A DNA stretch of 64,000 nt. It comes from an uncultured Bacteriovoracaceae bacterium. Its GTDB lineage: Bacteria > Bdellovibrionota > UBA2428. Below the pieces are notes generated by a model. The model did no database searches and was not told the DNA's origin. It was given only the letters and a program-made list of their open reading frames with translations. Shown piece after piece: positions 9,079 through 54,640 of the stretch; the stretch's first letter is position 1, and each line of letters starts with the position of its first letter. The stretch is taken from positions 5,052 to 69,051 of the forward strand of contig CAZIFW010000002.1 in the NCBI GenBank assembly GCA_964538275.1. Reading direction: 5' to 3'. A program made the position numbers and the translations under genes.

Positions 9079-9092
9079 TTTATTTTGCTCTT

Positions 9093-10928: not shown

Positions 10929-10966
10929 CCAAACTTTGTAGCATGCCTATAAATTGAGACCTATCA

Positions 10967-11008
10967 AAAAGGTATCGAGTACATTCCAAAAGGTACTAGG
11001 TACCTTTT
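10967..11008. repeat. AAAAGGT-family intergenic repeat cluster C
   Basis: AAAAGGTA at 10967 and 10988 (21-bp period); perfect palindrome AAAAGGTAC-TAG-GTACCTTTT at 10988-11008. Confidence 0.75.
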
Positions 11009-11031
11009 GAGAATAGGGGTAGAAAAGGGGG

Positions 11032-15658: not shown

Positions 15659-18340
15659 TTATTGTGGAGAAGAAAGAGTTCCAAAGTTTATAAGTAAGGG
15701 CGTATTCTGTTTTTCTGCTGCATTGACGTTACCCGTTCTAAAGTTTTGTTTTGAACCCCAACAGTACAATGCTCCAGAAGTTGTAAGTGCACACACATGC
15801 TTATCTCCCACAGCAACTTGATCAAAGTCTATAGAGGGACTTACGGGGGTAGGTACTGTAATAGGAGTTGTATTGGCAATTGCACCGTTTCCTACTTGCC
15901 CATAATCTTTAGATCCCCAGCAATATAATTTTTTTGTAGTGCTAATAGCACACGTTGTTTGTTGATTGGGAGTAGCATGGTTACCGCCAACAGAAATTTT
16001 TTCAAACTCAACACCCTCTGGATTGATAGCATCTGCTGTAGGTTTAAAGAGACTTGTAGTGGTTCCTGTTCCTAAAGCACCAAAGTTGTTCCATCCCCAA
16101 CAATAAACTTTGTTTGTATTTGTAATTCCACATGTATGAAAAGCGCCCGCAGCTAAATATCTAAAGAACTCGTCGGTTTCAAAGGGCTCGTTTGAGACAA
16201 TCCTTGGTGTAGCGTGGTTACCTTTATCGGCTGTAGTGGGAGTAATAGATTCTACAAAACCCAACATTCCTTTATCGTTACGACCCCAGCAAAGAGTTTT
16301 TGTATCTGTGCGACCATCTTTTTTTACAAGTGCACAAGTATGGCCATCGCCAGCAACAACTTGTACAAATTTTGTGTTACCAGCGCCAAATCCTGTTACG
16401 ACGTCAACGTTGATGTTTGTAGGTTGTGCAACTTTTTTAATTTTTGTATCTGCAATTGCAAGTTGTAGATTTTGGTTATCTCCCCAGCAAAAGAGTCGAT
16501 CATTTTCATCTATACCACATGTATGTCTACCACCTGCTGCAAGTTGCTTGAATTTATAAGTTGGGATCAGTTGAGGAGTGGCTGTGCTTCCACTTGTATT
16601 TGCAAGTTGATATTGAGTGTTGTCTCCCCAACAGTAAGCAAGTTTGTTTGCCATAATTCCGCAGCTATGTGTGCGACCCGCTGTAACTTTTAAGAAGTCG
16701 CTGTTTGTACTTCCTTTTGTAATTCTAAGAGGTGCTTGTACGTCTTTAGGCTTTCCAGTTGCATCTTGATAAATTGTTGAAGTTCCTGCCTGCCCAAGCG
16801 TACCCGCTCCCCAGCAAAATGCACTGGAATTTGCTACAACACAGGTGTGACCAGCGCCAGCAGCGAGTTCGCTTCCGAATGAGCTCAATGGAGAATGAGT
16901 AATGGTTTGTTCTCTAGGTAATTCTTCATTTCCGTTAAACTGTGTAAGTTTGATTGTTCTCAAGCCATTAGCATCGTCGGATAATGGGGTAAATTTAACT
17001 GAAAGATTAAATGTTCCAGTATTGTTACAAGGAGTTTCTGAAACCGTGTTCGGAAGAACCCCTATGCTATCGGAGGATAGCTTAACGTTAAAACCTGGAA
17101 TACAGGTTCCGGAAGCAATTGCAGTTTGAGAACTAATAGTACCCGTAGGAGCTGTTATTGTAAAAGTTGGCAATTCGGAATCTTTGTAAACTTTCCAACT
17201 TGCACGAGCTGGAGTTTGACTTTCGTTGCCTGCACGGTCTACAGCTTTTACAAAAAAGTAATAAGTTGTATTGAGTTTAAGATCAGGGCTAATATTCAAG
17301 CTAAGATTGTTATTGTTTGAAGTCTGAGTCCAAGTTGCTTGAGCATTTCCATTTATATTTTCACTGATGTAATACAAGTAATGGCTAATCCCAGATCCAC
17401 CTGTATTGTCAGTCGCAGTCCAGCTAATGGGAGGAGATGCTTTCAGATGAGTGCTGACTGCTTCAAGTCTTAAATCGGTTATATTATTAGGGGCAATTGT
17501 ATCAATTGTGTACGATGCTATCTCTTTGCATGAAGTCGTGAATGATCCTACTCCAAAACCTTTGGCAAATATTTTTATTGGAGACGTTGATTGAGTGAGG
17601 CTTAGTGCGACTCCTGTGCTTGATTCGTCTCTAGATAGTTTTGTTGTAATAGCTTGAGAATCTTGTTCGCAAGCACAAGTGCTAGTGTTGCAGCTATCGG
17701 TACCTCTAAAGAGTTGAACTTTGTCTACGTCCTCGTTGTTAATTTGTAGTTTAATCAACGGGTTTGAAACATTTCCAGCAAATAAGGAATTAGTTTTCCA
17801 ATCACCTGCAGAAGGATTTGCTTTAGTTGAAAAAGCTAAAAAATTTATAGGAGAATTGATGTTATGTGCGTAGGTGTATTTTTCTATACATTCAGAAAGA
17901 CTATTATCCGATTTGCGTGTTTTAAGGTAAATTTTAATACGAGTGTTGCTACTCATGGTCGATACATCGAGTTCAAGGCCTGTATTTTTTAGAAGAGCCG
18001 CATCAATACCATCATTTGGATCAATAACAGTTCCATTTTTAAGAGAGGCTAGGTTTGAGCACCCATTAATATAGACAAATACTTTTCTCACATTAGAGGC
18101 AACGGTAGCAGATATTTTTGGATAAAAACTACTTGCAGGGTTTAGAGTACTTCCAGTGGGACTAATGATCGGATTGCTAATTCCTGTGTTGTCGGTATCA
18201 ATGGGGTCATCGTCAACGGAATCCCCAGGATCGTTATCCCCTTCAGTGACAGTCAGTCCTTTCTCACCAAAAGAAGATTTTTGAAAACAACTTGTGAGAA
18301 GAAAAGACGAAAACAACAATGCAAATAGGTGTAAACCCAT
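15659..18340 (-). CDS. Large lipoprotein with FN3/Ig-like domains and a C-terminal 7-blade RCC1 propeller
   Basis: Lipobox LTSC; FN3-like YYFFVKAVDRAGNES; seven (A/V)G..HTC....CWG.N..GQL-type repeats. Confidence 0.88.
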   Translation of the reverse strand: MGLHLFALLFSSFLLTSCFQKSSFGEKGLTVTEGDNDPGDSVDDDPIDTDNTGISNPIISPTGSTLNPASSFYPKISATVASNVRKVFVYINGCSNLASLKNGTVIDPNDGIDAALLKNTGLELDVSTMSSNTRIKIYLKTRKSDNSLSECIEKYTYAHNINSPINFLAFSTKANPSAGDWKTNSLFAGNVSNPLIKLQINNEDVDKVQLFRGTDSCNTSTCACEQDSQAITTKLSRDESSTGVALSLTQSTSPIKIFAKGFGVGSFTTSCKEIASYTIDTIAPNNITDLRLEAVSTHLKASPPISWTATDNTGGSGISHYLYYISENINGNAQATWTQTSNNNNLSLNISPDLKLNTTYYFFVKAVDRAGNESQTPARASWKVYKDSELPTFTITAPTGTISSQTAIASGTCIPGFNVKLSSDSIGVLPNTVSETPCNNTGTFNLSVKFTPLSDDANGLRTIKLTQFNGNEELPREQTITHSPLSSFGSELAAGAGHTCVVANSSAFCWGAGTLGQAGTSTIYQDATGKPKDVQAPLRITKGSTNSDFLKVTAGRTHSCGIMANKLAYCWGDNTQYQLANTSGSTATPQLIPTYKFKQLAAGGRHTCGIDENDRLFCWGDNQNLQLAIADTKIKKVAQPTNINVDVVTGFGAGNTKFVQVVAGDGHTCALVKKDGRTDTKTLCWGRNDKGMLGFVESITPTTADKGNHATPRIVSNEPFETDEFFRYLAAGAFHTCGITNTNKVYCWGWNNFGALGTGTTTSLFKPTADAINPEGVEFEKISVGGNHATPNQQTTCAISTTKKLYCWGSKDYGQVGNGAIANTTPITVPTPVSPSIDFDQVAVGDKHVCALTTSGALYCWGSKQNFRTGNVNAAEKQNTPLLINFGTLSSPQ

Positions 18341-21821: not shown

Positions 21822-22928
21822 ATGCGATTTTGGCCAAAGGATGTGGCGTTTTTCTGGATGACTTTTGCTTTGTCGCTTGTAGGCTTGATAACTCTTTACA
21901 GCGTGTCGAGTGTTCAGGGTATTGATCTTTATGGCGACTCTCTGCATTTTTTACGTAAACAGTTAATTTTCTCCGGTATCGGTTTTGTTTTTATGCTGTT
22001 TATTTCGCACTTGCCGCCTAAAACAATTTTAAAACTTTCGCCCTATTTAGTGGCCGTTACTTTTATTTTTTTAGCGGCAATACTCATTCCCGGACTTGGT
22101 TTTTCTACTAAGGGCGGAACTCGTTGGTTGAGTATTGGTGATTTTAGATTTCAGCCCTCGGAATTTGCTAAAATCACTTTGATTGTTTTTTTTGCAGCTC
22201 GTCTTTCTCGATCTCGTAATATTTTCAATAAATGGAAAGAAGAACTTGTTGTTCCATTTGCCGTGTTAGGAGTCTTTTTAATTTTATTCTTAAAGCAACC
22301 TGACTTTGGTAATTCCGTCATCTTGGCGCTGGTCATTTTGTCTTTAGTTTTTTTAGCAGGTGCACCGTGGAAAAATCTTTTAATAATGGGAGGGGTTTCC
22401 ATTGTTGGATTTGTAACTTTACTTTTAGCCCAGCCTTATCGTGTGAAGCGTCTAGTTTCCTTTATGGATCCGTGGCGAGATCCTCAAGACACTAACTATC
22501 AAATTGTACAGTCGTTTATTGCTTTTTATCGTGGAGGTTGGTTTGGGGTAGGCTTAGGAAACAGCCAGTCGAAGTTATATTTTTTACCTGAAGTTAAAAC
22601 AGATTTTATTGCTTCAATCTTAGCAGAAGAAGTTGGGGTTATTGGTTTTACTCTTATTCTTTTACTTTATGGTTTGATGGTTATGAGGGGTTTGAAAATT
22701 GCAGAACAAGCTGCTGAACCTTCACATTATTTATTAGCATCAGGAGCTACTTTGCTTCTCGGATTTCAGGCTATTTTAAATTTAGCGGTTGTCTTGTCTT
22801 TACTTCCAACAAAAGGCTTGCCTTTGCCTTTTGTCTCGATGGGGGGATCGAGCTTGCTCTCTTCCCTGATCTTATGCGGTCTGGTACAGTCAGTAGCTGG
22901 GGCTAGTGAAAAAAAATTAACAGCATAA
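21822..22928 (+). CDS. ftsW: SEDS peptidoglycan polymerase FtsW
   Basis: RFQPSEFAK, KQPDFG, GVGLGNS, TDFI, PTKGLPLPFVSMGGSS; adjacent to murG. Confidence 0.93.
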   Translation: MRFWPKDVAFFWMTFALSLVGLITLYSVSSVQGIDLYGDSLHFLRKQLIFSGIGFVFMLFISHLPPKTILKLSPYLVAVTFIFLAAILIPGLGFSTKGGTRWLSIGDFRFQPSEFAKITLIVFFAARLSRSRNIFNKWKEELVVPFAVLGVFLILFLKQPDFGNSVILALVILSLVFLAGAPWKNLLIMGGVSIVGFVTLLLAQPYRVKRLVSFMDPWRDPQDTNYQIVQSFIAFYRGGWFGVGLGNSQSKLYFLPEVKTDFIASILAEEVGVIGFTLILLLYGLMVMRGLKIAEQAAEPSHYLLASGATLLLGFQAILNLAVVLSLLPTKGLPLPFVSMGGSSLLSSLILCGLVQSVAGASEKKLTA

Positions 22929-22940
22929 GGGGGTCGCAGC

Positions 22941-24038
22941 ATGAGCTCAGCGCCTGAAAAAAATATTTGGATAGTTGCAGCGGGTACAGGCGGACATATT
23001 TTTCCTGGCCTTGCAGTTGCTAGAAAGATTCAAGAGTTAGAATCAAATGTTCGTATTACTTTTTTTGGAACAAAAGATCGATTAGAAGAAAAAATTGTTC
23101 CTCGTCATGGGTATCAAATTAAATTTTTAAATGCCAAACAGTGGAAAGGGCGTGGGGTGATGGATCGCGTTGCCTCTCTTTTTTCTTTGGCGCGCTCTAC
23201 TTTTTCAATTTGGAAACTTATTCCCCAAGAGCGTCCAACAGCACTTATATCTGTAGGGGGATATGTCTCCATGCCTGTGGGCTTGGCGTGTTGGTTAAGG
23301 TCGGTTCCTATTTTTCTATTGGAACCCAATATTCGAGCTGGAATTTCAAATTGTATTTTAAGTCGTTTTGCTCGTAAAGCGTTCACAGTCGCCGGTAGTG
23401 ATGCTTTGAAAAAGTTTCATTGTCCTACAGAAGAAACTGGAAATCCGGTCTGGGGAGTTTTTAAAGCGAACACTATTCGTAAAGAAGCTAAAAATTTACT
23501 GATTCTTGGAGGCTCACAAGGGGCAAGAATATTGTGTCACGTAGGATTGAATGCCTTTAGTCGCTTAAAGAATCGAGGCGACGAATTGAATTTGTTTCTA
23601 CAAAGTGGCGATAAAAATTTAGAAGATGCTATGGAGCTCAAAAAATCTTTAAATTTAGGTGACGACTGTGTTGTGAGTGCTTTTGTTGAAGATATGCCTA
23701 AGCGTTTAGAGTGGGCAGATGTGGTGATTGCGCGAGCAGGGGCCATGACCTTAACCGAATTAAGTTTAACTCAGATACCCAGTATTTTAGTTCCCTTTCC
23801 CCAAGCAGCCGATGACCACCAAAGGGTAAACGCTCGCTTGTGGGCAGTCGCCGGAGCTGCTCTTTTGGTAGACGAAAAAGAGAAGGACTTTGAGAAAAAG
23901 CTTGAGGATGAACTTCATCAAATGATCGCTGCACCTAACTCCTATGAATACCGTAAAAAAATGTCCGAAAATCTTGGATCTTTTGCACGGCCCAATGCAG
24001 CTCAAAAAATAGTATCTGAAATTTTAGCTGAGCTCTGA
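22941..24038 (+). CDS. murG: MurG glycosyltransferase
   Basis: AGTGGHIFPG, GGSQGA, RAGAMT, DDHQRVNA. Confidence 0.95.
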   Translation: MSSAPEKNIWIVAAGTGGHIFPGLAVARKIQELESNVRITFFGTKDRLEEKIVPRHGYQIKFLNAKQWKGRGVMDRVASLFSLARSTFSIWKLIPQERPTALISVGGYVSMPVGLACWLRSVPIFLLEPNIRAGISNCILSRFARKAFTVAGSDALKKFHCPTEETGNPVWGVFKANTIRKEAKNLLILGGSQGARILCHVGLNAFSRLKNRGDELNLFLQSGDKNLEDAMELKKSLNLGDDCVVSAFVEDMPKRLEWADVVIARAGAMTLTELSLTQIPSILVPFPQAADDHQRVNARLWAVAGAALLVDEKEKDFEKKLEDELHQMIAAPNSYEYRKKMSENLGSFARPNAAQKIVSEILAEL

Positions 24039-24052
24039 TAGGCTTTGCCCAT

Positions 24053-25438
24053 ATGTCATTAAGAGGACGCAGCTGCCAAGTTCATTTTATCGGTATTGGT
24101 GGCATAGGGATGTCCGGCATTGCTGAATTGTTACATCAGTTAGGGCATAAAGTTACTGGCTCTGATCTGAGCGAAAATGATCAAATTAAAAAGCTTCAAA
24201 AATTAGGTGTTCAAATTCAAAAGGGACATTCCGAGAAAATTTTTGAAAATTGCCGGCCCGATGTAGTTGTTTATTCAAATGCGGTAAAAAGCACAAATCC
24301 TGAGTGGGCTTATGCGCGCGCTCATCAAATTCCAGTTATTCGCAGAGCAGAAATGCTTGCGGAGCTGATGCGTTTAAAGAGAGGTATTTCTGTGGCGGGT
24401 AGTCACGGTAAAACCACTACAACAGGTATGGTCTCTTCAATTCTTAAAGAAGCTGGCAAAGAGCCAACTATTGTTATTGGGGGTCAGTTTGCGGCTATTG
24501 GATCTAACGCCGCATGGGGTGGTGGAGAATGGTTAGTCGCCGAGTCTGATGAAAGTGATGGAAGCTTTTTGCATTTATCACCCGAAGTTGCCATTGTTAC
24601 CAATATTGACCGAGAGCACTTAGATCATTACGGCAGCATTGAGACTTTACAGAAAACGTTTTTTGACTTTATTGAACGTATTCCTTTTTATGGTTGCACC
24701 ATTTTATGTTCGGATAGTCCTTTGCTTTTAGAGATGCGCGATCAAATTCGTAAACCATCTAAATGGTACGGTTTTAATAAAATTGAAAATTCGCATCGTA
24801 TTGAAGTACTGGATTCTGCGGCTTTTCCGCGTTTTAGAGTACTTTGCCCTAATGAAAAGGTTCTTTTTGAAACTCAACTTAAAGTTCCAGGTAAACATAA
24901 TATCTCCAATGCAGTAGCGGCAGCTTTGTTGTGTTTAGAGCTAGGAATTGCTGCTGAAGTTATTGCAAGGGCTCTGGGTTCTTTTGAAGGCGTTGCAAGA
25001 CGTTTTGAAAAAAAAGGAACTTGGAAGAATCATTTAATATACGAAGATTATGGCCATCACCCTACGGAAGTAAGCGCAACCTTAGAGGCGACAAAAGAAG
25101 TATTTAAGGATGAAAAAGTTTTGGTGGTCTTTCAACCCCATCGATATTCACGAACGCGTTTACTTTGGTATGATTTTAAGAATTGTTTCAACAAAGCAGA
25201 TCTTCTAATTACACTTCCTGTGTATGCTGGAGGCGAACATCGTACTCCAGAAGATGAAAGTTTCGATGGTGAAAACTTTTCCGAACACATCAGTCATGAT
25301 CACAAAGGATATTGTGCCGATTTTACAGAGTTAGAAAAACACTTAGAGAAAATGGCAGCCACCGAGGACTTTGGACCAATCTTTTTTTTGGGTGCAGGCG
25401 ACATCTCAAAATTCGCAACAAAGTTAGTGGAGTCTTAG
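24053..25438 (+). CDS. murC: UDP-N-acetylmuramate-L-alanine ligase
   Basis: HFIGIGGIGMSG, GSHGKTTTT, ESDESDGSF, DYGHHPTE, FQPHRYSRT. Confidence 0.97.
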   Translation: MSLRGRSCQVHFIGIGGIGMSGIAELLHQLGHKVTGSDLSENDQIKKLQKLGVQIQKGHSEKIFENCRPDVVVYSNAVKSTNPEWAYARAHQIPVIRRAEMLAELMRLKRGISVAGSHGKTTTTGMVSSILKEAGKEPTIVIGGQFAAIGSNAAWGGGEWLVAESDESDGSFLHLSPEVAIVTNIDREHLDHYGSIETLQKTFFDFIERIPFYGCTILCSDSPLLLEMRDQIRKPSKWYGFNKIENSHRIEVLDSAAFPRFRVLCPNEKVLFETQLKVPGKHNISNAVAAALLCLELGIAAEVIARALGSFEGVARRFEKKGTWKNHLIYEDYGHHPTEVSATLEATKEVFKDEKVLVVFQPHRYSRTRLLWYDFKNCFNKADLLITLPVYAGGEHRTPEDESFDGENFSEHISHDHKGYCADFTELEKHLEKMAATEDFGPIFFLGAGDISKFATKLVES

Positions 25439-25441
25439 CCC

Positions 25442-26374
25442 GTGGATTCAATTTTTAAGGGACTCGCTGGAGTCGTTGAAGAAAATAAAGATCTTTCTCA
25501 GCGTGTTGCTTATAAAATTGGTGGTCTCGCAAAGTATTTTTATACGCCTACTCATTCGCAAGACTTGCTCAAATTTTTAGAAATAACTGAGAAAAACTCT
25601 CTCCCACTTTTCATCCTTGGAAGTGGTACAAATTTGCTCATTTCTGACAAAGGTTTTGCAGGGGTGATTTTGTGGATGGGTCCCAGCTTGATCCATAAAG
25701 ATACAGACGTAAAGGTTCTAAGCGAAGACCAGACACAAGTTCTTATAGAAGTTCCAGCTAGTTTTTCAAAAGCTAAATTGTTGGACATCGCCGTTAAAAG
25801 AAATTGGGGCGGTCTGGAGTTCTCTGCAGGTATTCCAGGTTCTTTGGGTGGAGCTGTTTTTATGAACGCAGGCACCAAGTGGGGCAGTTATGGAGAGGTC
25901 ATTTCAGAAGTAGAATTTGTATCTCTTAAAAAACAAATTTACTCTCTTAAAAACGATGAGATTGGTTTTAAATACAGGGGACACGGAGAAGGACTCTTAG
26001 ATGGAAAAACCATCGTGAGCACTGTGCGAATTAAACTTAATAAAAATACTTCTCAGAATGAAATACTATCTAAAATAGATGAAATTTATAGCTACAGAGG
26101 TTTGCGACAACCCTTAGAACTTCCTAACTGTGGGAGCGTTTTTAAGAATCCTGCTCACAGCGAAAAAGGTGCAGGGCGCTTAATCGAAGCCTGTGGTCTT
26201 AAAGGAACTACGATAGGTGGCGCAGAAATTTCTCTTAAACACGCCAATTTCATTTTGAATAAGGGTAATGCGAAGTCTTCAGATGTTCGTTCTTTGATTC
26301 AAAAAATTCAAGAGACTGTAGACTCCAAGTTTCAGATTCAGCTTGAGCCAGAAGTTATATTTGTAGGGACATAG
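25442..26374 (+). CDS. murB: UDP-N-acetylenolpyruvoylglucosamine reductase
   Basis: GSGTNLL, GIPGSLGGAVFMNAG, GSVFKNP, HANFILN, LEPEV. Confidence 0.95.
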   Translation: MDSIFKGLAGVVEENKDLSQRVAYKIGGLAKYFYTPTHSQDLLKFLEITEKNSLPLFILGSGTNLLISDKGFAGVILWMGPSLIHKDTDVKVLSEDQTQVLIEVPASFSKAKLLDIAVKRNWGGLEFSAGIPGSLGGAVFMNAGTKWGSYGEVISEVEFVSLKKQIYSLKNDEIGFKYRGHGEGLLDGKTIVSTVRIKLNKNTSQNEILSKIDEIYSYRGLRQPLELPNCGSVFKNPAHSEKGAGRLIEACGLKGTTIGGAEISLKHANFILNKGNAKSSDVRSLIQKIQETVDSKFQIQLEPEVIFVGT

Positions 26375-26375: not shown

Positions 26376-27719
26376 TTGAAGAAACACACAATAGTTCTTT
26401 TTATTTCTGTTTTTGCAACACTTGTCCTTATTTTAGCTGCAACTCGTGGTTTTTTTGCTTGGGATTATTTTTCGCTTTGGGGAATGCAAGCTAAGAGTGT
26501 ATGGGCTACAGGGAATTTTTTTTTCTCAGGAGCTGATACTCCACTTCATTTTTCTTACGAATCTATTTTAGGTGCGGCTTACGGTTATTTAAATTACTTA
26601 ATTTCCCCAACTTATTTTAGCGATATTGCTTTGGGGGTATGTACGCTCATCGGTGTCTTTTTGTTGATAGCATTTGTACTCTTAAAATTGAGAAGTCACT
26701 CGCTAACAAAATCTTTTGATTTTTTAATCCTTATATTTTTTCTTTTACTTATAAGTCCTGGAACATGGGGACAGCTTACGTTGGGAGCTTATGTAGATTT
26801 AATTGCTGCCTTTGCTTACGCCGCATTTATTATAGCGTTACTCAATAAAAAATGGATTGTAGCGAGTATAGCACTTGTAGGCACCGTGTTTTTAAAGCCT
26901 ATTTTATGGGTTTCACTTATTATTGCTCTTTTAGCTTTTTCCCTTTCCCTTTTATTTAAATCTCAGAAAGACAAAAAAGAATTTTTCAAAGCACTTTTGT
27001 TCATGGCGGCTCTTACCTTTTTGAGTTTCGCCTTGGAAAGATTTTTGTTCAAAGGGGAGCTTGTCCCCTCACCTTCATATCGCATTGCTTACGATTCAAA
27101 TCTTTGGAGTTTTCAAAGGGTTTTTTATTTTTTATGGAGTGCGTTTAAAAGTCATAATTTACTTTCTGCAGCGTCTTTGGTTTTAGCCGTGTACTTATGG
27201 AAAAAGGAAAAGTTTTGGCTCATCTTTTATTTGGGTAACATAAGTTATTTATTCTTAATTTATTTTGTTTTGTTTGCTGGAGTAAACTCGCCTGAGGCGT
27301 TTCCATCCATCAATCGATATATTATTCCTCTATTAGTACCCTTCATGGTCAGAGCTTTGTATCTAGAAGATTTGAAAAAGAAGCTTTGGAATCATAAGCA
27401 TTTTGTTCCCGCTTTGATTTTAGTTTTTGGAGCTTTGTTGATTGCTCGCAGTGTTGAAGAGCTCTTGCGATTCAAAGGAGGAGCAGATTCTTTAGCTCAA
27501 AGGACGCAGATTTGCTTAAAGTATGCAGAGCAATGTGAGCAATTACAGTCGTACAGGGCACAGTTTAATCCGAGTCTATGTAAGAGTTATATACTGCCAA
27601 ATACATTGGCCGGGGGCTTGGAGCCCCTTGTAATTTCATATTTGTCTTTGCCAGAACGAGTTTTTTTTGAATCATCTCGCATACCTAAGTCGCTTGAGCC
27701 TAGCTGCAGACTTCGTTGA
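26376..27719 (+). CDS. Polytopic membrane protein, putative GT-C-fold glycosyltransferase
   Basis: About 11 TM helices; first-loop WDYFSLW..AK, YVD, RYIIP motifs of the kind seen in lipid-donor glycosyltransferases (inference). Confidence 0.55.
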   Translation: MKKHTIVLFISVFATLVLILAATRGFFAWDYFSLWGMQAKSVWATGNFFFSGADTPLHFSYESILGAAYGYLNYLISPTYFSDIALGVCTLIGVFLLIAFVLLKLRSHSLTKSFDFLILIFFLLLISPGTWGQLTLGAYVDLIAAFAYAAFIIALLNKKWIVASIALVGTVFLKPILWVSLIIALLAFSLSLLFKSQKDKKEFFKALLFMAALTFLSFALERFLFKGELVPSPSYRIAYDSNLWSFQRVFYFLWSAFKSHNLLSAASLVLAVYLWKKEKFWLIFYLGNISYLFLIYFVLFAGVNSPEAFPSINRYIIPLLVPFMVRALYLEDLKKKLWNHKHFVPALILVFGALLIARSVEELLRFKGGADSLAQRTQICLKYAEQCEQLQSYRAQFNPSLCKSYILPNTLAGGLEPLVISYLSLPERVFFESSRIPKSLEPSCRLR

Positions 27720-27754
27720 CTATAGCCCCGTTTGCCTGTTTAGTGAGCCTGTAT

Positions 27755-28459
27755 ATGAAAGCCGTTATTCTAGCAGGGGGCCTTGGTACCCGTCTGGCTC
27801 CCTTCACAAAAGTTATCCCTAAGCCGTTGTTGCCTATTGGAGATAAGTCCGTGTTGGAAATTCAAATTCAGTGTTTAAAAAAATATGGATTTGACGAGGT
27901 TATTCTCGCCACAAATTATCGTTCACAATATTTTGAAAGTTTTTTTGGAGATGGAAGTGCTCTAGGGGTTAAATTAAAAGTTAGCCAAGAAACAAAAGCT
28001 CTTGGGACAGCAGGTCCACTTAAGCTTTTATCAAAAGAATTAAACGAGCCTTTTATTGTAATCAATGGCGACATTTTAACTCTTTTAAACTTGGAAGAGT
28101 TTTACAAATTTTCCATTCAAACAGATGCACTCTTAACGGTTGGCATTAAAGAACTTATCACTCCCTTCGCTTTTGGAAACATTATATACGAAGGCGATTA
28201 CGTGACTTCAATTTATGAAAAGCCCGACATTAAAATGAATATTTTAGCGGGTGTTTATTGCTTCAAGCCCGAAATTTTAGACTTAATTCCTGAGGACACT
28301 TACTACGGTATGGATAGTTTGATCACTTCTATGATTACAAGCAAAAAGCCTGTAGCGAAATATATGATCAAAGATTACTGGATTGATATCGGCCGAATGG
28401 ATGATTTTGAGAAGGCACAATCAATTTATGATACTCACTTCAAGGATGATGCAAAATGA
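27755..28459 (+). CDS. Sugar-1-phosphate nucleotidyltransferase
   Basis: MKAVILAGGLGTRL, PKPLLPIG, LGTAGPL, VINGDIL, WIDIG; no CBS domains. Confidence 0.9.
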   Translation: MKAVILAGGLGTRLAPFTKVIPKPLLPIGDKSVLEIQIQCLKKYGFDEVILATNYRSQYFESFFGDGSALGVKLKVSQETKALGTAGPLKLLSKELNEPFIVINGDILTLLNLEEFYKFSIQTDALLTVGIKELITPFAFGNIIYEGDYVTSIYEKPDIKMNILAGVYCFKPEILDLIPEDTYYGMDSLITSMITSKKPVAKYMIKDYWIDIGRMDDFEKAQSIYDTHFKDDAK

Positions 28460-29433
28460 GCAAAAAAGTTTTGGTAACAGGCGCAGGGGGCTTCATAGGT
28501 TCACACTTAGTGGAGGCACTTGTAAAAGAAGGCGCACAAGTAAAAGCATTTATTCACTACAACTCTAACAATCATTGGGGTTGGCTCGAAGAGTCTCCTG
28601 TTAAAGATCAGATAGAAATCATCTCGGGTGATATACGAGATTACGATTCAGTTGAACAAGCGATTAAAGGTTGTCAGGAAGTCTTTCATTTAGCAGCTCT
28701 TATTGGCATTCCCTATTCTTATGTTTCTCCAATCGCGTATGTGCGCACCAATGTTGAAGGTACTTATAATGTTGTACAAGCTGCACTTAAGAATAACGTT
28801 GGGAATGTCATGGTGACTTCAACGAGCGAAACGTATGGTTCGGCTCAAACTGTGCCCATCGATGAATTTCACCCAGCTGTTGGTCAGTCTCCCTATGCGG
28901 CTACTAAAATTGGAGCTGATCAACTAGCACTGAGTTACCATAAGTCTTTCGGCTTGCCCGTTAAAGTTGTGCGCCCGTTCAATACTTTTGGACCGAGGCA
29001 GTCTGCACGTGCAATTATCCCAACTGTTATTACACAAATCCTTTCAGGAATGAAAACTCTTGAGTTGGGTGACCTCACTCCAACGCGTGATTTTACTTAT
29101 GTAAAAGACACAGCAGCAGGAATGATTGCAATTTCCAAGTGTGGAGTGCTTTCTGGTGAAGCAACAAATATTGGAATGAACACTGAGATTTCAATTGGAG
29201 ATTTAGTAACGATGATTTCTAAGATTATCGGTCAAGAAATTGAAATAAAACAAAGTGAGCAAAGAGTGCGCCCTGAAAAATCTGAAGTACGTCGTTTGGT
29301 GTGCGATAACTCAAAGCTGACCAAAGCCTCGGGCTGGGCTCCTTCTTATACGTTTGAAATGGCACTCAGAGAAACCATAGAATGGTTTAAAACTCGTCAC
29401 ACTCAGTACAAACCCAACGTTTACAATGTGTAG
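28456..29433 (+). CDS. NDP-GlcNAc 4,6-dehydratase, LegB-like
   Basis: TGAGGFIGSHL, LIGIPYSY, STSETYG, YAATK, RPFNTFGPRQSARA. Confidence 0.82.
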   Translation: MSKKVLVTGAGGFIGSHLVEALVKEGAQVKAFIHYNSNNHWGWLEESPVKDQIEIISGDIRDYDSVEQAIKGCQEVFHLAALIGIPYSYVSPIAYVRTNVEGTYNVVQAALKNNVGNVMVTSTSETYGSAQTVPIDEFHPAVGQSPYAATKIGADQLALSYHKSFGLPVKVVRPFNTFGPRQSARAIIPTVITQILSGMKTLELGDLTPTRDFTYVKDTAAGMIAISKCGVLSGEATNIGMNTEISIGDLVTMISKIIGQEIEIKQSEQRVRPEKSEVRRLVCDNSKLTKASGWAPSYTFEMALRETIEWFKTRHTQYKPNVYNV

Positions 29434-29436
29434 TTT

Positions 29437-30603
29437 TTAAAGTGTTTTTTGCTGTGAGCTACTTGGCAGATTTATGATGCGTTCTCGCATAGATTCAGCT
29501 GTGCTGAGATCAGCTGCGCGAGGGCTTTCTTTTAAATACGCAAGTGTGTTCATTAAATCCCAAGGTGGACGAGCTTGTATCTTGGCATCAATAAATGCTG
29601 TTAAAAGTTCTTTTTGATGTTTTTGATAAGCGGGCTTAAGGATCAACGTGTTGAGCCAGTAGTTTGCAGAATTTTCCTCATGAGAAGTTAAAAGCTCCGC
29701 AAATTCGCAACCAGAAAATGCTGCAAGGTATTTTTTGTGTAAGAGTTTTTTCTTCTCCAAAAACTCAGGCAGGCGCAAAAGTTGCGCATAAAGTAAGGCC
29801 GCGTTCAGATTGGGCATACGGTAATTAAAGCCCATGACATCGTGAGAGAATGATACTTTATCTGCAGGTACGATTTTGGCAGTGGTGCTGAGATGTTTTA
29901 TTTTTTGTGCAAGCTTAGGATCTGAACATAAAATAGCTCCACCACCACCTGCAGTGGCAATTTTATTTCCATTAAAGCTCAGTGTGCCAAGAGTGCCCAA
30001 AGTACCCGTGTGTTGTTTTTTGTAATAACTTCCTAATGACTCCGCACTGTCTTCAACTAAATGGATTTTGTACTTCTTACAGAGTTCTAAAAGTTCGGAA
30101 AGTTTAGCAGCGAAGCCAAAAACATGGACAACACAAAGGGCTTTGATTGCTGCATTACTTTTGTTGTGAACACACAGATCATTTTTTACGGAACATTCTT
30201 TCTTAAGAAAATCTGCAAGTTTTAAAGGGCAGACCCCTAAACTCTCTGTTTCAATATCTATAAATAATGGCTTGGCTCCTGTATAGAGCACTGCATTGGC
30301 TGTGGCGACAAATGTCATGTTGGGAACAAGTACTAAGTCACCAGTGCCTACACCTAAAGCGTGGAGGCTAAGGTGAAGAGCAGAGGTGCCTGTAGAAGTT
30401 ACAATAGCAAAGGGACTTTTTGTAATTTTACAAAGTTCTTCTTCGACTTTATTTGTGAATGCCCCTACAGAGGAAACAAATGTACTTTCTAAACATTCGG
30501 CTACTTTTTCACTCTCTAGAGAGGAGAGATTGGGTGTGTGTAAGTCAGCGGGGGTGGGAATAACCGATTGAACTCTTTTTAGAATATCTAACACTAGGCT
30601 CAT
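29437..30603 (-). CDS. LegC-family PLP-dependent sugar aminotransferase
   Basis: FVSSVG, TFVATANA, VHVFG, EDSAESLG, SFNGNKI, GFNYRMPNLNAAL. Confidence 0.87.
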   Translation of the reverse strand: MSLVLDILKRVQSVIPTPADLHTPNLSSLESEKVAECLESTFVSSVGAFTNKVEEELCKITKSPFAIVTSTGTSALHLSLHALGVGTGDLVLVPNMTFVATANAVLYTGAKPLFIDIETESLGVCPLKLADFLKKECSVKNDLCVHNKSNAAIKALCVVHVFGFAAKLSELLELCKKYKIHLVEDSAESLGSYYKKQHTGTLGTLGTLSFNGNKIATAGGGGAILCSDPKLAQKIKHLSTTAKIVPADKVSFSHDVMGFNYRMPNLNAALLYAQLLRLPEFLEKKKLLHKKYLAAFSGCEFAELLTSHEENSANYWLNTLILKPAYQKHQKELLTAFIDAKIQARPPWDLMNTLAYLKESPRAADLSTAESMRERIINLPSSSQQKTL

Positions 30604-31247
30604 AGATAGCGGTCCTCACGTTTACGTTGGCCCACAATTCTACAAGGATTTCCAAAAGCCAAAGCATTTTGAACAAGATCTTTTAAAACGACTGAACCCA
30701 TTCCAACGACACAATCATTGCCAATGTGGATGCCATGTTTGATAAGCGCTCCTAAGCCAATAGAGCTGTAGTCACCAATGTGTACGTTGCCTCCAAGTGC
30801 AGCTTTGGGCCCAATTGAAGAAAAGTTTCCAATTTTTGCATCATGATCTATTTGAGCCCCTGTGTTTACGAGGCATTGTATTCCTAAATGACTCCCGCTT
30901 TGAACAATTGTTCCAGCCATACATACTGCGCCTTCTTCAATTTTTACATTTGAGGCAATAAGGGCGGAACTGTGGATAAGTGATGGAAAAAAAGCATTCG
31001 AATTAAGAGCTTTTATTTTATTATAGACCTCGGCTCGTGCTGCATTGTCACCAATGCCTAGGGCTAGTGCCATACCATCTACTATTTGAAAGCTTTTCTC
31101 TGAAATGAGCGGAACGCCTAAAAGTAGCCCCGAGGGTGCCTCTTCCTGAGTGATAAAGCCACTGAGCTTGTATTCACTGCAATTTTTTATAAGGTCGGCC
31201 AATACTCGGGCGTGTCCGCCTGTGCCATATACAAATATGTCTTTCAC
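30600..31247 (-). CDS. NeuD/PglD-type hexapeptide-repeat sugar N/O-acetyltransferase
   Basis: YGTGGHARV, LGIGDN, IDHD, left-handed beta-helix repeats, GNPCR. Confidence 0.88.
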   Translation of the reverse strand: MKDIFVYGTGGHARVLADLIKNCSEYKLSGFITQEEAPSGLLLGVPLISEKSFQIVDGMALALGIGDNAARAEVYNKIKALNSNAFFPSLIHSSALIASNVKIEEGAVCMAGTIVQSGSHLGIQCLVNTGAQIDHDAKIGNFSSIGPKAALGGNVHIGDYSSIGLGALIKHGIHIGNDCVVGMGSVVLKDLVQNALAFGNPCRIVGQRKREDRYL

Positions 31248-31266
31248 TTTGCTCTAAGATTGCATA

Positions 31267-31278
31267 GAGTGGCCACTC
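31267..31278. promoter_or_regulatory. Perfect 12-bp palindrome in the 47-bp divergent gap of the sugar locus
   Basis: GAGTGGCCACTC is its own reverse complement and sits centrally between two divergent starts. Confidence 0.4.
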
Positions 31279-31294
31279 ATTACAAGCTACAATC

Positions 31295-32035
31295 ATGCGT
31301 ACTATGCGGGGTTTAATTACTGTTATTGCCTACAATGAAGAGAAAAATCTTCCTATGGTCCTTAAGGAATTAAAGGACTTTGTAGCGACTCAAAAAAACC
31401 TCGAAATTCATTTAGCCGTTATTGATAATGCATCGAGTGATCAAACCCCAGAAGTTGTTGACGATATAGGCGGGGTAACTCTTGTGCGCCATTGCATAAA
31501 CAATGGGGGCTCAATGGGAACGGTCTTAAGTTACTTTCGATTGGCTCATAAAATGGATGTAGATTTTTTGGTTCAATTTGACGGCGATGGCCAACACATT
31601 GCCAGTGAGATTCCTCATATTCTTGCACCTATACTTAAAAATGAATCTGATTATGTAATTGGTTCTCGTTATTTAGATAAGCAAGGCTTTCAATCTACCT
31701 TTTTGCGACGTATTGGAATTAAAACCTTTAATTATTTAATTCGCTCACTGACCGGAGAAAAAATTACAGATTCAACATCGGGATTTAGAGCTTATAGTAA
31801 AAAGGTTATTCGCATTTTTTCAAATAAGTTTCCTCATGAAGTGATTGATCCCATGCAGTTGCTCGTGATTTCAAGTTTTGCTGGAATGCGCATACGAGAG
31901 GTACCAACAGAAATGCGAGCGCGTATTCATGGAAAGTCTGAATTTCAATTTTTCTCATCCTTTAAATTTGTTTTTGCGGGGCTGCTTACTTTGGGCAGTT
32001 GTTATTTGCAAAAACCGGTATTGAAGAAGCTTTAA
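31295..32035 (+). CDS. GT2 glycosyltransferase, polyprenol-phosphate glycosyltransferase (DPM1/GtrB)-like
   Basis: IAYNEE, IDNASSD, QFDGDGQH, VIGSRY, DSTSGFRAY, EVP. Confidence 0.88.
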   Translation: MRTMRGLITVIAYNEEKNLPMVLKELKDFVATQKNLEIHLAVIDNASSDQTPEVVDDIGGVTLVRHCINNGGSMGTVLSYFRLAHKMDVDFLVQFDGDGQHIASEIPHILAPILKNESDYVIGSRYLDKQGFQSTFLRRIGIKTFNYLIRSLTGEKITDSTSGFRAYSKKVIRIFSNKFPHEVIDPMQLLVISSFAGMRIREVPTEMRARIHGKSEFQFFSSFKFVFAGLLTLGSCYLQKPVLKKL

Positions 32036-32042
32036 GGAACTT

Positions 32043-32414
32043 ATGGGAATACAAATTAAAATCGTTATAACTTTATTTAGTTTGATTTTTTTATATGTCG
32101 TTTTAAAAAAAGTTCGTCGTGAATTTTTAAAACCATTTTATGCTCAACTATGGATTTCTTTTGCTCTTTTTATGTTGGCAGTTGTATGGGCCGAGCCTGT
32201 CTTTAAGTGGGTTTCTGACACTGTGTTTGGATTTTCGGATGCACGCCACACTATTTATATAGGCTTATTTGGTTTTCTCTTTCTTTATGCTTTTTACGCG
32301 ACTTTAGCTTTGAACCGAATGCAGGAACAAATGAAAGTTCTTATTAGCGAGGTTGCTATTACAGCCGCTCTAAAAAATGAAAAAATAAAATCAGAAAATA
32401 AAGTAGAGCTTTGA
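32043..32414 (+). CDS. DUF2304-like small membrane protein
   Basis: 3 TM helices plus a basic/coiled C-terminus (..LISEVAI), directly after a GT2; this pairing is typical of DUF2304. Confidence 0.7.
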   Translation: MGIQIKIVITLFSLIFLYVVLKKVRREFLKPFYAQLWISFALFMLAVVWAEPVFKWVSDTVFGFSDARHTIYIGLFGFLFLYAFYATLALNRMQEQMKVLISEVAITAALKNEKIKSENKVEL

Positions 32415-32494: not shown

Positions 32495-33304
32495 CTAGTT
32501 ACAGAGCTTAGATATATCTCCAGGCCAGTAGCTTGTGATTCTTAGGTAAGTATCGTTCACACTTTGTTCAGTCCCTTTAAGGTAGATCTTATAAGTTTCG
32601 CCACCTTTGAGTTTGAAGTTTACGTTTACTTTACAGCTACGTTGAACTTCGCCAGAACCCGTATGAGATTGGTCGAGGTCTTTGATTGAGTGATGATTCC
32701 CACCTGAGAAGTAAGTTGTTAACTTTTCTTTAGACTGACTTTTACCTGTGTAATCACCTTTGAAAGAAATGTAGTAAGTGCCACTTTTAGGGGCAGTGAC
32801 TGTGATGTATTTGTGCTCACTGCTTCCCATGATGCCCCAGATTTTTTTCCAACCTGAGCTGTAGTTGGTAACGCTTCCGCCACCATTAGAACCGCAACCG
32901 CTGCTGCTTCCGCAGTCATCATCGTCGCTATCGTCATCGCTATTCCACCAGTCATCGTCATCGTAGTTTCCGCCGTTGTTATTTCCGCCACCTGAGTTTC
33001 CACAAGATCCGTTAGCTGGAAAAGACCAGTAGTTATTGTTCCAGTAGTAGTACCACTGGTTTCCACAATAATTATAGCCATTGTAGGTTCCGTAACAGTT
33101 TGAAGGAAGAGAAGGTTGGTATCCACAGTTTCCTTGTGGGATATATCCAGGTGCATAGCTATTCCAATTGTGTGCAGGAGGAGAATATTGCGGCTGGGTA
33201 TAGGGGGAGTTGGGATTATAAGTTGTATTGCTTCCAGAAGATTTCTTTCCGCAGGCTCCAAGCGCCACAACAAGTCCAAGAATTAGAAACTGTAAGTTTT
33301 TCAT
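32495..33304 (-). CDS. Lipoprotein with N/Y/G/S-rich and acidic low-complexity regions and a C-terminal beta-rich domain
   Basis: Lipobox LGAC after MKNLQF; start placed at ATG 33304. Confidence 0.8.
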   Translation of the reverse strand: MKNLQFLILGLVVALGACGKKSSGSNTTYNPNSPYTQPQYSPPAHNWNSYAPGYIPQGNCGYQPSLPSNCYGTYNGYNYCGNQWYYYWNNNYWSFPANGSCGNSGGGNNNGGNYDDDDWWNSDDDSDDDDCGSSSGCGSNGGGSVTNYSSGWKKIWGIMGSSEHKYITVTAPKSGTYYISFKGDYTGKSQSKEKLTTYFSGGNHHSIKDLDQSHTGSGEVQRSCKVNVNFKLKGGETYKIYLKGTEQSVNDTYLRITSYWPGDISKLCN

Positions 33305-33316
33305 ACAAGCTAGTGA

Positions 33317-33334
33317 ATGCACGCTTTGTGCCAA
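33317..33334 (-). promoter_or_regulatory. Sigma54 (-24/-12) promoter
   Basis: Minus strand TTGGCAC-AAAGC-GTGCAT; the predicted TSS lies only a few nt before ATG 33304. Confidence 0.65.
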
Positions 33335-34964: not shown

Positions 34965-35546
34965 TTAGTAATTTTCTGGAAAAAGAATTCGTTCTGCATG
35001 CTCAATGCTGATGTGTAAAATCTGCATGTGTAACTCTTGAATGCGATCTGCAGTTTTGCCCGGAACTACAATAGCTTCTTGGCTCAGACCTAAAGCTGCT
35101 CCACCATCTTTCCCAAGTAAGCTCCATGTGCCAAGACCTTTGCTTTTAGCTACTTCTAAAGCTTTCAAAATATTTGGAGAATTTCCGCTCGTGCTCATGG
35201 CAATTAAAAGGTCGCCCTTTTTTCCAAAGGCTTCAACTTGCCGTGAAAACACGTGTTCAAAGCCAAAGTCGTTAGAGACACAGGTGGTATGTGCTGCCTC
35301 ACCGAGTGCTAGAACAGGCAGGGCTTTGCGATTTCCCCGGTATCGACCCGTGAACTCTTCTGCAAAATGTAGAGCGTCACAATGAGATCCCCCGTTTCCA
35401 CAAATGAGAATTTTATTATCTTCTTTAAAACATTTTACAATTGCATCACCCAAAGCAGAGCACTGTGCAATTAATTTTTCGTTAGCTATAAAAGATTGAA
35501 GTGCTACTTGAGCGTCTGTAAGTGCATTGATCCATACTTGTTTCAT
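34965..35546 (-). CDS. gmhA: Phosphoheptose isomerase
   Basis: CGNGGSHCDA, NDFGF, FSRQVEA, STSGNSPNI, RIQELH. GGAGGA RBS supports a start at 35546. Confidence 0.94.
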   Translation of the reverse strand: MKQVWINALTDAQVALQSFIANEKLIAQCSALGDAIVKCFKEDNKILICGNGGSHCDALHFAEEFTGRYRGNRKALPVLALGEAAHTTCVSNDFGFEHVFSRQVEAFGKKGDLLIAMSTSGNSPNILKALEVAKSKGLGTWSLLGKDGGAALGLSQEAIVVPGKTADRIQELHMQILHISIEHAERILFPENY

Positions 35547-35577
35547 AAAGTCCTCCGAACACATTGTGTTCATTTCA

Positions 35578-41419: not shown

Positions 41420-41545
41420 AATACTAGCCTGCCTTAAAAGGGGTGCCTAGGGTAAAAAGACGTAGCTCCATTTTGCAGCGAGCTGCTTTTAGAGCTTAAA
41501 TGGAATAGACATAAGTGCAGCGAAAAGGAGAAGCTAAGTAGCTGT

Positions 41546-54570: not shown

Positions 54571-54640
54571 GGATTACCCTTATTTAATTATAGGGGCATA
54601 GTGAGGAATAAAGCATGTACGCTATTTTTTTGGCGCATTG

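Follow-up and report, generated by a model that had tools for sequence, protein, structure and literature searches.

The DNA considered in this work (the window) is a stretch of 64,000 nucleotides from an uncultured Bacteriovoracaceae bacterium (GenBank assembly GCA_964538275.1, contig CAZIFW010000002.1, positions 5,052 to 69,051). Directly following its ftsW, murG, murC and murB genes, this stretch contains seven genes encoding a polytopic membrane protein, four enzymes of amino-sugar synthesis, a short glycosyltransferase of family GT2 and a small membrane protein of the DUF2304 family (Table 1). A reading of the same region based upon its letters (the sequence-only reading) had proposed that this set, at positions 26376–32414, constitutes an Arn/Gtr-like route by which a bacillosamine-type sugar is passed through undecaprenyl phosphate (Und-P) to an external acceptor. 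All seven open reading frames (ORFs) were recovered at these positions by ORF listing and profile searches. The results described below indicate that together they probably specify a self-contained system for extracytoplasmic glycosylation, of the type that combines a polyprenyl-phosphate-linked sugar with a GT-C glycosyltransferase, as seen in the Arn, Gtr, Gac and PpgS systems. The proposed route is supported by the class of the GT2 protein, its pairing with DUF2304, the predicted fold of the membrane protein and the linkage of the genes.

Table 1. Genes of the cluster, the adjoining cell wall genes and the related six-gene module of three other loci (positions are those of the window unless a locus is named).
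Feature	Positions	Strand	Matches and basis
Polytopic membrane protein, 447 aa, predicted GT-C fold	26376..27719	+	No Pfam or NCBIfam match; AF2 model and Foldseek
Sugar-1-phosphate nucleotidyltransferase, predicted to make a nucleoside diphosphate (NDP)-hexose precursor (NDP-HexNAc?; nucleotide possibly GDP)	27716..28459	+	PF00483, 137 bits
LegB-family NAD-dependent NDP-sugar 4,6-dehydratase	28456..29433	+	TIGR04180, 479.4 bits (cut-off 475)
LegC-family pyridoxal phosphate-dependent sugar 4-aminotransferase	29437..30603	-	TIGR04181, 446.4 bits (cut-off 420); DegT_DnrJ_EryC1, 267 bits
NeuD/PglD/VioB-family N-acetyltransferase for a 4-amino-4,6-dideoxy sugar	30600..31247	-	TIGR03570 (NeuD/PglB/VioB), 187.5 bits (cut-off 160.8); PglD_N and hexapeptide repeats
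Short GT2, 246 aa, DPM1/PpgS/GacI/ArnC class, predicted polyprenyl-phosphate sugar synthase	31295..32035	+	PF00535, 64.7 bits
DUF2304 small membrane protein (GacJ/Rv3632 family), predicted GT2-activating partner	32043..32414	+	PF10066, 56.8 bits (cut-off 25.5)
ftsW-murG-murC-murB (context, outside the system)	21822..26374	+	Pfam/NCBIfam matches; gaps of 1-14 nt
Six-gene module, L017	5269-10086		
Six-gene module, L018	5533-10064		
Six-gene module, L020	5529-10096		

The genes of the cluster are closely spaced. The TTG start codon of the membrane protein gene is located 1 nt past the murB stop codon, the nucleotidyltransferase gene overlaps both of its neighbors (the membrane protein and LegB genes) by 4 nt, and the DUF2304 gene begins 7 nt past the GT2 gene. 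The acetyltransferase is the upstream gene of the pair on the minus strand. This spacing suggests three transcription units, viz. the genes for the membrane protein, nucleotidyltransferase and LegB (preceded by ftsW-murG-murC-murB, so that ftsW through LegB probably form a single unit), the acetyltransferase-LegC pair, and the GT2-DUF2304 pair. As a promoter and terminator scan of the cluster region gave signals at or below chance level, these units are deduced from gene spacing alone. The window showed no match in an Rfam scan, and the cluster showed none in a plasmid collection.

Conservation of the Cluster and its Gain or Loss

All seven genes are present, in the same order and context, in a diverged relative represented by a 459-kb JGI contig (L001). 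In a comparison of the two sequences synonymous sites were saturated, and the ratio of nonsynonymous to synonymous substitution rates (dN/dS) was between 0.01 and 0.10 across the seven genes, which indicates that all of them are under purifying selection. The nucleotidyltransferase, LegB and GT2 proteins are 96–98% identical in aa sequence to their counterparts in L001, and the membrane protein is the least constrained of the seven (72% identity, dN/dS ~0.10). The DNA of the cluster also recurs unchanged in several bioreactor and wastewater metagenomes, and the matches obtained in searches of sequencing runs were to DNA-type metagenome assemblies only.

The relatives of the window's MurB in the genome collection are from metagenome-assembled genomes (MAGs) of the Bdellovibrionota or Bacteriovoracaceae, except for one labelled only "Proteobacteria" and a distant match from the Desulfuromonadaceae. 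In the closest named MAG (Bdellovibrionota ABC2.20; L004), whose MurB is 77% identical, the cluster region is flanked by the same genes as in the window, with those for an AMP-binding enzyme, an FGGY kinase, ftsW, murG, murC and murB on one side and those for a lipoprotein, orf177, a SIS protein and UvrD on the other. However, all seven genes of the cluster are missing from this genome, and their position (10992–13258 of L004) is occupied by genes for an unrelated 516 aa protein with no assigned function and a haemolysin-III-like protein. The interval between murB and the lipoprotein gene is thus a variable spot. Because the seven genes occur together in L001 and are jointly absent from L004 between the same flanks, they have been gained or lost as one unit.

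The 447 aa Membrane Protein

The membrane protein belongs to a very small family. Searches with its sequence against Pfam, NCBIfam and the PDB sequences gave no match, and none was found in Pfam even at E ≤ 10. A word-index search retrieved only the protein itself and its L001 orthologue, and among 1.84 billion cluster representatives scanned exhaustively with HMMER, 13 representatives of the family were found. A scan of metagenome contigs with the family alignment added a single locus, which is a near-duplicate of one already found (L011/L012). Structure prediction by AlphaFold from only two sequences gave a mean pLDDT of 37.7, and a usable model required 12 remote homologues from the HMMER scan; the model (AF2) based upon the alignment of 14 sequences has a pLDDT of 88.9 and a pTM of 0.89.

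In this predicted structure, about 11 transmembrane (TM) helices are followed by a C-terminal domain of 80 aa. When the model was compared with the PDB using Foldseek, all of the 20 top matches were GT-C enzymes (PglB, ArnT, AftA, ALG9, STT3 of OST-A and OST-B, DPY19, ALG12 and PIGU), with probabilities of 0.94–1.0 and query-normalized TM-scores of 0.42–0.52. The matches past these were GPCR and transporter noise with probabilities below 0.25, except for a second PIGU structure (0.72) and the GT-C enzyme PimE (0.44). The suggestion of the sequence-only reading that this protein is GT-C-like is therefore upheld at the level of the predicted fold. Some of the results weigh against this assignment and against the larger interpretation that depends upon it. 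The Foldseek E-values are marginal (the best is 1.6e-3), the TM-scores reach only about 0.42–0.52, and no similarity to any GT-C family was detected at the profile level by PDB-sequence profile searches, Pfam or hhalign. The family profile produced only a chance match among the PDB sequences, and the protein does not match the PMT and PMT_2 profiles, which represent the ArnT/PMT (GT83/GT39) families. Pfam searches at E ≤ 10 with the 14 family members gave isolated weak matches only, to a TMEM260-like model (one member, E 0.01) and to Gaa1, and hhalign comparison of the family with the PMT_2-type proteins encoded next to the related module in other bacteria (see below) gave probabilities of less than 2%. 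Hence, the model makes a GT-C fold highly probable for this protein, although the marginal E-values keep this assignment short of certainty.

GT-C enzymes carry a catalytic acidic residue in the extracytoplasmic loop that follows the first TM helix (TM1). In the alignment of the 14 sequences, residues D30, L34, W35, G36, K40, W43, Y61, G70, D83, G137, S311, R314, Y315, and P426 are invariant and D141 is nearly so (at least 90% conserved). D30 is located five residues past TM1, within a conserved WDYFxLWGxxxKxxW segment, and with the N-terminus taken as inside, the invariant polar residues, and D141 as well, are predicted to be in outside loops or at the ends of the TM helices that border these loops. 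D30 and D141 may act in catalysis or in metal binding. The C-terminal domain contains four cysteines, most of which are conserved across the family, and these fit a periplasmic location. In the public annotation this protein (P0001) has 411 aa and begins at M37, which affects positions 26376–26484 of the window. This start is probably wrong, since it would delete TM1 and the invariant D30; the TTG codon at 26376 agrees with the homologues.

The GT2 Protein and its DUF2304 Partner

The PDB matches of the GT2 protein are all to polyprenyl-phosphate enzymes: DPMS (5mlz), ArnC (9hwj, 9bhc, and 8vxh) and GtrB (5ekp). Its NCBIfam matches are led by AglJ, PpgS (5e-16), dolichyl-phosphate hexose transferase, ArnC and PgfS. 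As all of these scores are below the equivalog cut-offs, the protein, which has more than 7000 homologues, is assigned to the polyprenyl-phosphate glycosyltransferase class but as an orthologue of no named enzyme. It is short in the manner of GacI and PpgS, in that the pair of TM helices found at the C-terminus of ArnC and GtrB is missing, and like GacI and PpgS it is encoded next to a DUF2304 protein, a pairing also found in the three other loci described in the following section. In the systems studied previously, the DUF2304 protein GacJ binds and stimulates GacI and a second one, Rv3632, stimulates PpgS, while GacL, a GT-C enzyme, uses the Und-P-linked sugar outside the membrane (10.1101/180810); Und-P-GlcNAc was detected at m/z 1048 in that study.

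The Sugar/GT2/DUF2304 Module in Other Bacteria

Three homologues of the GT2 protein with ~50% identity were sampled, from an unlabelled assembly (L017; GCA_040961595.1), a member of the Bdellovibrionota (L018/L019) and a member of the Aminicenantes (L020). In all three, the homologue is part of a co-linear operon of overlapping genes for an NTP-transferase, a dehydratase, LegC, a NeuD-type acetyltransferase, the GT2 and DUF2304. With scores of 437–485 bits, the LegC proteins of L017, L018, and L020 exceed the cut-off. A LegB-like dehydratase is encoded in L018 and in L020 (464–465 bits, just under the cut-off), and the dehydratase of L017 is a 412 aa protein of the Polysacc_synt_2 type. Genes for PMT_2-type GT-C proteins flank these operons: two of them in L020 (510 aa, 69 bits; 548 aa, 21 bits), one in L018 (627 aa, 20 bits), and in L017 one of 510 aa (27.8 bits) together with a 647 aa PMT_2 protein and a YfhO protein. 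As the operon recurs beside such genes, the genes for the sugar enzymes, GT2 and DUF2304 form a conserved functional module whose GT-C partner varies; in the lineage of the window, this partner is the rare 447 aa family. The combination is not peculiar to this genome, and the module appears to be widespread in environmental bacteria.

The presence of LegB and LegC, both above the NCBIfam cut-offs, raises the question of whether the four sugar enzymes are one part of a split pathway for legionaminic (nonulosonic) acid, whose LegG, LegI, and LegF proteins would be encoded elsewhere and would consume the NDP-linked N,N'-diacetylbacillosamine (diNAcBac), with the GT2, DUF2304 and membrane proteins being mere neighbors. 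The scores over curated cut-offs favor this explanation, and so does the fact that the scan for neu/leg genes covers 64 kb only. Within that scope, Pfam scans of the 62 ORFs covering the window bear out the sequence-only reading, which had reported no legG, legI or legF: no NeuB (PF03102), Epimerase_2 (PF02350) or CTP_transf_3 (PF02348) match was found. Neither NeuB nor CTP_transf_3 appears among the domains listed for the retrieved flanks of L001, L017, and L018, and no NeuB gene is present near the operons of L017, L018 or L020; the one Epimerase_2 gene of L020 lies 5 kb away amid ordinary polysaccharide glycosyltransferase genes. Further, the sugar genes overlap with those for the GT2 and DUF2304 in a single operon in the three other sampled bacteria, which makes a distant pathway consuming their product unlikely, and the seven genes of the window behave as one unit in their gain or loss. 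We therefore regard a split legionaminic acid pathway as very improbable, and the LegB/LegC-annotated genes of the modules in L017, L018, and L020 probably do not make legionaminic acid.

The Membrane Protein Family and its Predicted Donor

The use of a donor linked to polyprenyl phosphate or pyrophosphate by the membrane protein is predicted from the linkage of its gene family to PpgS-like GT2 genes. Five independent, distant members of the family (23–28% identity) are encoded within a few genes of a GT2, and all four of the GT2s that were checked are PpgS/AglJ-like; amino-sugar genes are often present as well. The gene for P0004 (L008) overlaps a downstream PpgS/AglJ-like GT2 gene, and a second such GT2 in this locus adjoins another large membrane protein. 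P0009 (L016) is two genes from a GT2 scoring 165 bits on the PpgS model, P0006 (L011/L012) is near a PpgS-like GT2, GFO_IDH and DegT proteins, a hexapeptide acetyltransferase and a DUF7657/DUF7654 protein, and P0005 (L009, 10001–14948) is near a PIG-L-type deacetylase, an acetyltransferase, an SDR protein and a 323 aa GT2. The gene for P0011, the fifth of these members, also overlaps a downstream GT2 gene. For P0007 (L015), the overlapping gene is a DegT gene, a DUF2142 protein is encoded nearby and the GT2 is of another type. The arrangement in L009 resembles the systems of Francisella and Bordetella that deacetylate an Und-P-linked HexNAc. In L011/L012 (8613–11338) and in L014 (~8540–11245), two divergently transcribed paralogues of the family occur side by side, and the sugar genes correspond to a UDP-GlcNAc3NAc-like set.

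A different possibility is that the membrane protein does not consume an Und-P-monosaccharide at all. It might be an oligosaccharyltransferase, ligase or polymerase for glycans linked to undecaprenyl pyrophosphate (Und-PP), or it might use some other donor; in that case another GT-C enzyme, encoded elsewhere, would consume the product of the GT2 and DUF2304 proteins, or the GT2 would act on a non-lipid acceptor. The best Foldseek match, PglB, is an oligosaccharyltransferase with an Und-PP-linked donor, four genes separate the gene for the membrane protein from that for the GT2, which is in a different predicted transcription unit, and for two family members the contigs are short and show no GT2. 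However, ArnT and AftA, whose donors are polyprenyl-phosphate-linked, have TM-scores equal to or better than that of PglB, and the 80 aa C-terminal periplasmic domain is too small for a peptide-binding domain of the PglB kind. Neither Wzx nor Wzy nor a phosphoglycosyl transferase (PglC/Bac_transf or WecA/Glycos_transf_4) was found among the scanned ORFs of the window. In addition, the linkage of the family to PpgS-like GT2s recurs in independent lineages, as in the overlapping genes of P0004, and elsewhere the same sugar module adjoins GT-C genes in a manner matching the position of the membrane protein here. A donor other than an Und-P-monosaccharide is accordingly improbable.

The Sugar Predicted for the Cluster

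A quartet of LegB, LegC, NeuD and nucleotidyltransferase proteins constitutes the front end of legionaminic acid synthesis, which makes GDP-2,4-diacetamido-2,4,6-trideoxyglucose from GDP-GlcNAc. In the window, the matches to LegB, LegC and NeuD agree with the sequence-only reading of a bacillosamine-type sugar, while the part of that reading which concerns the 2-acetamido group relies upon family hidden Markov model scores near their cut-offs. The LegB score exceeds its cut-off by only 4 bits, and the L018 and L020 orthologues are below it. The other enzymes point in more than one direction. The best PDB and NCBIfam relatives of the nucleotidyltransferase are mannose-1-phosphate guanylyltransferases, the N-terminal domain of archaeal GlmU, MurU and HddC, with the guanylyltransferases being the closest. 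Among the structures related to the acetyltransferase, PerB and VioB come first, and the acetyltransferase of Neisseria pilin glycosylation and PglD are also present. The aminotransferase is related to 7b0m, to the 1o61/4ztc aminotransferases (which we take to be PglE of C. jejuni) and to perosamine synthases, matching the last two about equally. These observations count against a bacillosamine-type sugar, and since the three enzymes are equally near or nearer to enzymes of perosamine, viosamine or mannose metabolism, the 2-acetamido group is only tentatively assigned.

The same mechanism could thus operate with N-acetyl-viosamine (Qui4NAc) or N-acetyl-perosamine, made from NDP-glucose or GDP-mannose and carrying no 2-acetamido group. 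Apart from the affinity of the nucleotidyltransferase, this is favored by the ranking of PerB (an enzyme for GDP-perosamine) and VioB above PglD, by the E-value of 1e-44 between the aminotransferase and perosamine synthases, and by the dehydratase, which reaches 185 bits with the dTDP-glucose dehydratase model and passes the LegB cut-off only narrowly, with its orthologues in the other modules falling under it. The PDB relatives of the dehydratase are sugar 4,6-dehydratases. On the other hand, the LegB and LegC models are by far the best for the two proteins (479 vs. 185 bits and 446 vs. 206 bits, respectively), the LegC cut-off is passed in all four modules, the dehydratase scores just 68 bits on the Gmd model, and the gene quartet is that of the front end acting on GDP-GlcNAc. 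From these comparisons, N-acetyl-viosamine or N-acetyl-perosamine is a tentative alternative, a diNAcBac-type sugar is predicted with slightly better than even confidence, and the rest falls to some other sugar.

The acetyltransferase-LegC pair (29437–31247, minus strand) resembles a replaced cassette. Its order is acetyltransferase followed by LegC, as opposed to LegC followed by acetyltransferase in L018 and L020, and its aminotransferase and acetyltransferase share just 37% and 28% identity with their counterparts in L018, compared with 59–65% for the nucleotidyltransferase and LegB. Against L001 the two proteins are 83% and 80% identical, vs. 96–98% for the neighboring enzymes. A simple inversion of the LegC-acetyltransferase block was rejected, as the gene order does not fit and the identities are much lower, and both of these features indicate replacement of the cassette. 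Such a replacement could alter the stereochemistry at C4 or the acyl group.

Proposed Mechanism and Acceptor

Based upon family membership, the nucleotidyltransferase would make an NDP-hexose, probably NDP-GlcNAc (possibly the GDP form), which the LegB, LegC and NeuD/PglD-type enzymes would convert into an NDP-4-acetamido-4,6-dideoxy sugar, most likely 2,4-diacetamido-2,4,6-trideoxyhexose. The class of the GT2 and its conserved linkage with DUF2304 suggest that these two proteins would load a single sugar on Und-P at the cytoplasmic face. The Und-P-sugar would then be flipped across the membrane, a step to which no gene is assigned, and the 447 aa protein, as predicted from its fold, topology and gene linkage, would use it in the periplasm to decorate an acceptor. 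No flippase (GtrA, SMR/ArnEF, MATE or Wzx) was found among the scanned ORFs of the window, which weighs against the proposed route, and within the cluster itself the genes are so closely set that no further ORF is left for one. Flipping may be carried out by a gene elsewhere, and an involvement of DUF2304 in this step is speculation. Of the defining components of three-component systems, a flippase is the only one lacking (PMC11127046).

Several acceptors can be considered, for which the gene neighborhood provides weak hints. Our first guess is lipopolysaccharide (LPS), in its lipid A or core, after which other glycans of the envelope, peptidoglycan or lipid II, and a lipoprotein or pilin may be considered. 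The lipid A of Bdellovibrio bacteriovorus has mannose in place of its phosphates, so that glycosylation of lipid A has a precedent in this phylum. Genes for LPS precursors are also found nearby, viz. SIS_2 (GmhA-like; 34965–35573) in the window and SIS+CBS (KdsD-like) beside family members in L011 and L015. The co-orientation with ftsW-murG-murC-murB, and probable co-transcription with these genes, might be a sign of peptidoglycan or lipid II as the acceptor, or just of expression coupled with envelope growth. Convergent with the DUF2304 gene is that for a lipoprotein (32495–33334, minus strand; LGAC lipobox), which has a long low-complexity linker rich in Asn, Gly, Ser, Asp and Tyr and a conserved C-terminal domain. 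This lipoprotein is a possible target of glycosylation, but it is also present in L004, where the cluster is lacking. An operon for a type IV pilus (PilM, PilN, PilO, PilP and the secretin PilQ) and a prepilin peptidase gene are located at 52564–58333 on the minus strand, ~20 kb from the cluster.

Comparison with Known Systems

The overall logic of the cluster is closest to that of the Arn system for aminoarabinose on lipid A (ArnA-F, with ArnC and ArnT) and of FlmF2/FlmK, while its parts are closest to GacI/GacJ/GacL and PpgS/Rv3632/Rv3779. As in Arn, genes for dedicated NDP-amino-sugar synthesis, including one for a DegT-family aminotransferase, accompany those for a GT2 predicted to load Und-P and for a GT-C-type protein, which in Arn modifies a lipid of the envelope. 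ArnC and ArnT also rank with the best sequence or structural matches of the proteins studied here. In contrast to Arn, the sugar pathway of the cluster consists of a 4,6-dehydratase, an aminotransferase and an N-acetyltransferase in place of decarboxylation, formylation and deformylation, the GT2 has a DUF2304 partner in place of the C-terminal pair of TM helices, an ArnE/F flippase is missing, the membrane protein does not match PMT or PMT_2, and lipid A is only a candidate acceptor. LgmABC of Bordetella is a related system. FlmF2/FlmK of Francisella, which is related to Arn, shares the same overall logic (PMC2233673).

PtmE, LegB, LegC, and LegH of Campylobacter jejuni, which carry out the first steps of legionaminic acid synthesis, belong to the same four enzyme families as the sugar enzymes of the cluster. 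The differences are that the window contains no LegG (NeuC-like), LegI (NeuB-like) or LegF (NeuA-like) gene, and that the product is predicted to go to Und-P and not into a nine-carbon sugar. The Pgl systems of N- and O-glycosylation (PglF/E/D, PglC, PglB/PglL) have in common with the cluster the predicted diNAcBac and the PglD_N domain, with PglB being the top structural match of the membrane protein. In those systems, a phosphoglycosyl transferase places diNAcBac on Und-PP, and this is followed by extension and en bloc transfer. In the cluster, a DPM1-like GT2 is found instead, with no phosphoglycosyl transferase, no extending glycosyltransferases and no large peptide-binding domain, and a Pgl-like Und-PP pathway was rejected on account of the first of these.

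In Mycobacterium tuberculosis, PpgS (Rv3631), Rv3632 and Rv3779 add galactosamine to arabinogalactan, with GT-C transfer following the action of PpgS and Rv3632. The likeness to the cluster lies in a PpgS-type GT2 with a DUF2304 partner; however, the scores on the PpgS model are below the 370-bit equivalog cut-off, the mycobacterial sugar is GalNAc or GalN on decaprenyl phosphate and the GT-C enzymes are unrelated in sequence. The Gac proteins of Streptococcus pyogenes (GacI, GacJ, GacK, and GacL), which make the GlcNAc side chain of the group A carbohydrate, also include a short GT2 giving an Und-P-monosaccharide, a DUF2304 gene directly downstream of it and a GT-C enzyme that transfers the sugar outside the membrane (10.1101/180810). 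Unlike the cluster, this system uses the housekeeping donor UDP-GlcNAc, hence it needs no sugar-synthesis genes; it also encodes a Wzx-like flippase (GacK), for which there is no counterpart here, its GacL belongs to another GT-C family and its acceptor is the polyrhamnose of a Gram-positive wall. Lastly, the three-component systems (GtrA/B/C, and ORF12–15 of Citrobacter with family GT136) follow the same logic of polyprenyl-phosphate sugar synthase, flippase and GT-C enzyme, and GT136 is likewise a GT-C family known only by its predicted fold (PMC11127046). They differ from the cluster in that no flippase gene is present here and the donor comes from a dedicated four-enzyme amino-sugar pathway. 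The mechanism proposed for the cluster is thus a known one, and the departures from it are the predicted donor sugar, a GT-C family beyond the reach of sequence profiles and the absent flippase gene.

Novelty of the Predicted System

The known donors linked to polyprenyl monophosphate include Glc, Gal, Man, GlcNAc, GalNAc/GalN, GlcN, L-Ara4N, GalA, Ribf, and Araf. In the literature outside subscription journals, we found no system in which a sugar of the diNAcBac type, or one derived from LegB/LegC, is placed on Und-P for a GT-C enzyme. The most far-reaching interpretation of our results is that the 447 aa protein represents a new GT-C family (in the sense of CAZy), which transfers one sugar of the diNAcBac type from Und-P-diNAcBac, itself an undescribed lipid intermediate, to the lipid A/LPS core or to peptidoglycan/lipid II and is co-transcribed with ftsW-murG-murC-murB, and that the module is a widespread diversion of the legionaminic front end to envelope decoration in many environmental phyla. 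Taken as a whole this interpretation is rather doubtful. If the route proposed for the cluster is correct, Und-P-diNAcBac, or a related 4-acetamido-4,6-dideoxy sugar, would join the short list of donors for extracytoplasmic glycosylation, and a very rare GT-C family recognizable by structure prediction alone would be defined. A LegB or LegC annotation would then not necessarily mean legionaminic acid, and genome surveys of nonulosonic acids should allow for this. As the system is from an uncultured wastewater bacterium, its practical impact is modest.

Other Features of the Window

The ftsW-murG-murC-murB genes form a fragmented division and cell wall (dcw) block, limited to positions 21822–26374, and ddl-ftsQAZ do not follow. 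The block is preceded by divergently transcribed genes for the FGGY kinase and the AMP-binding enzyme. An RCC1-like protein of 893 aa with multiple RCC1 repeats (275 bits), which is unusual for bacteria, is encoded at 15659–18340 on the minus strand and is kept in L001. At the start of the window (11–4821) are genes for urocanase, an amidohydrolase and an aromatic amino acid (histidine ammonia-) lyase, which are histidine utilization genes. The region at 40814–43455 encodes an LpoB-like activator of peptidoglycan synthase, followed by two tandem ArsA/Get3-like ATPases.

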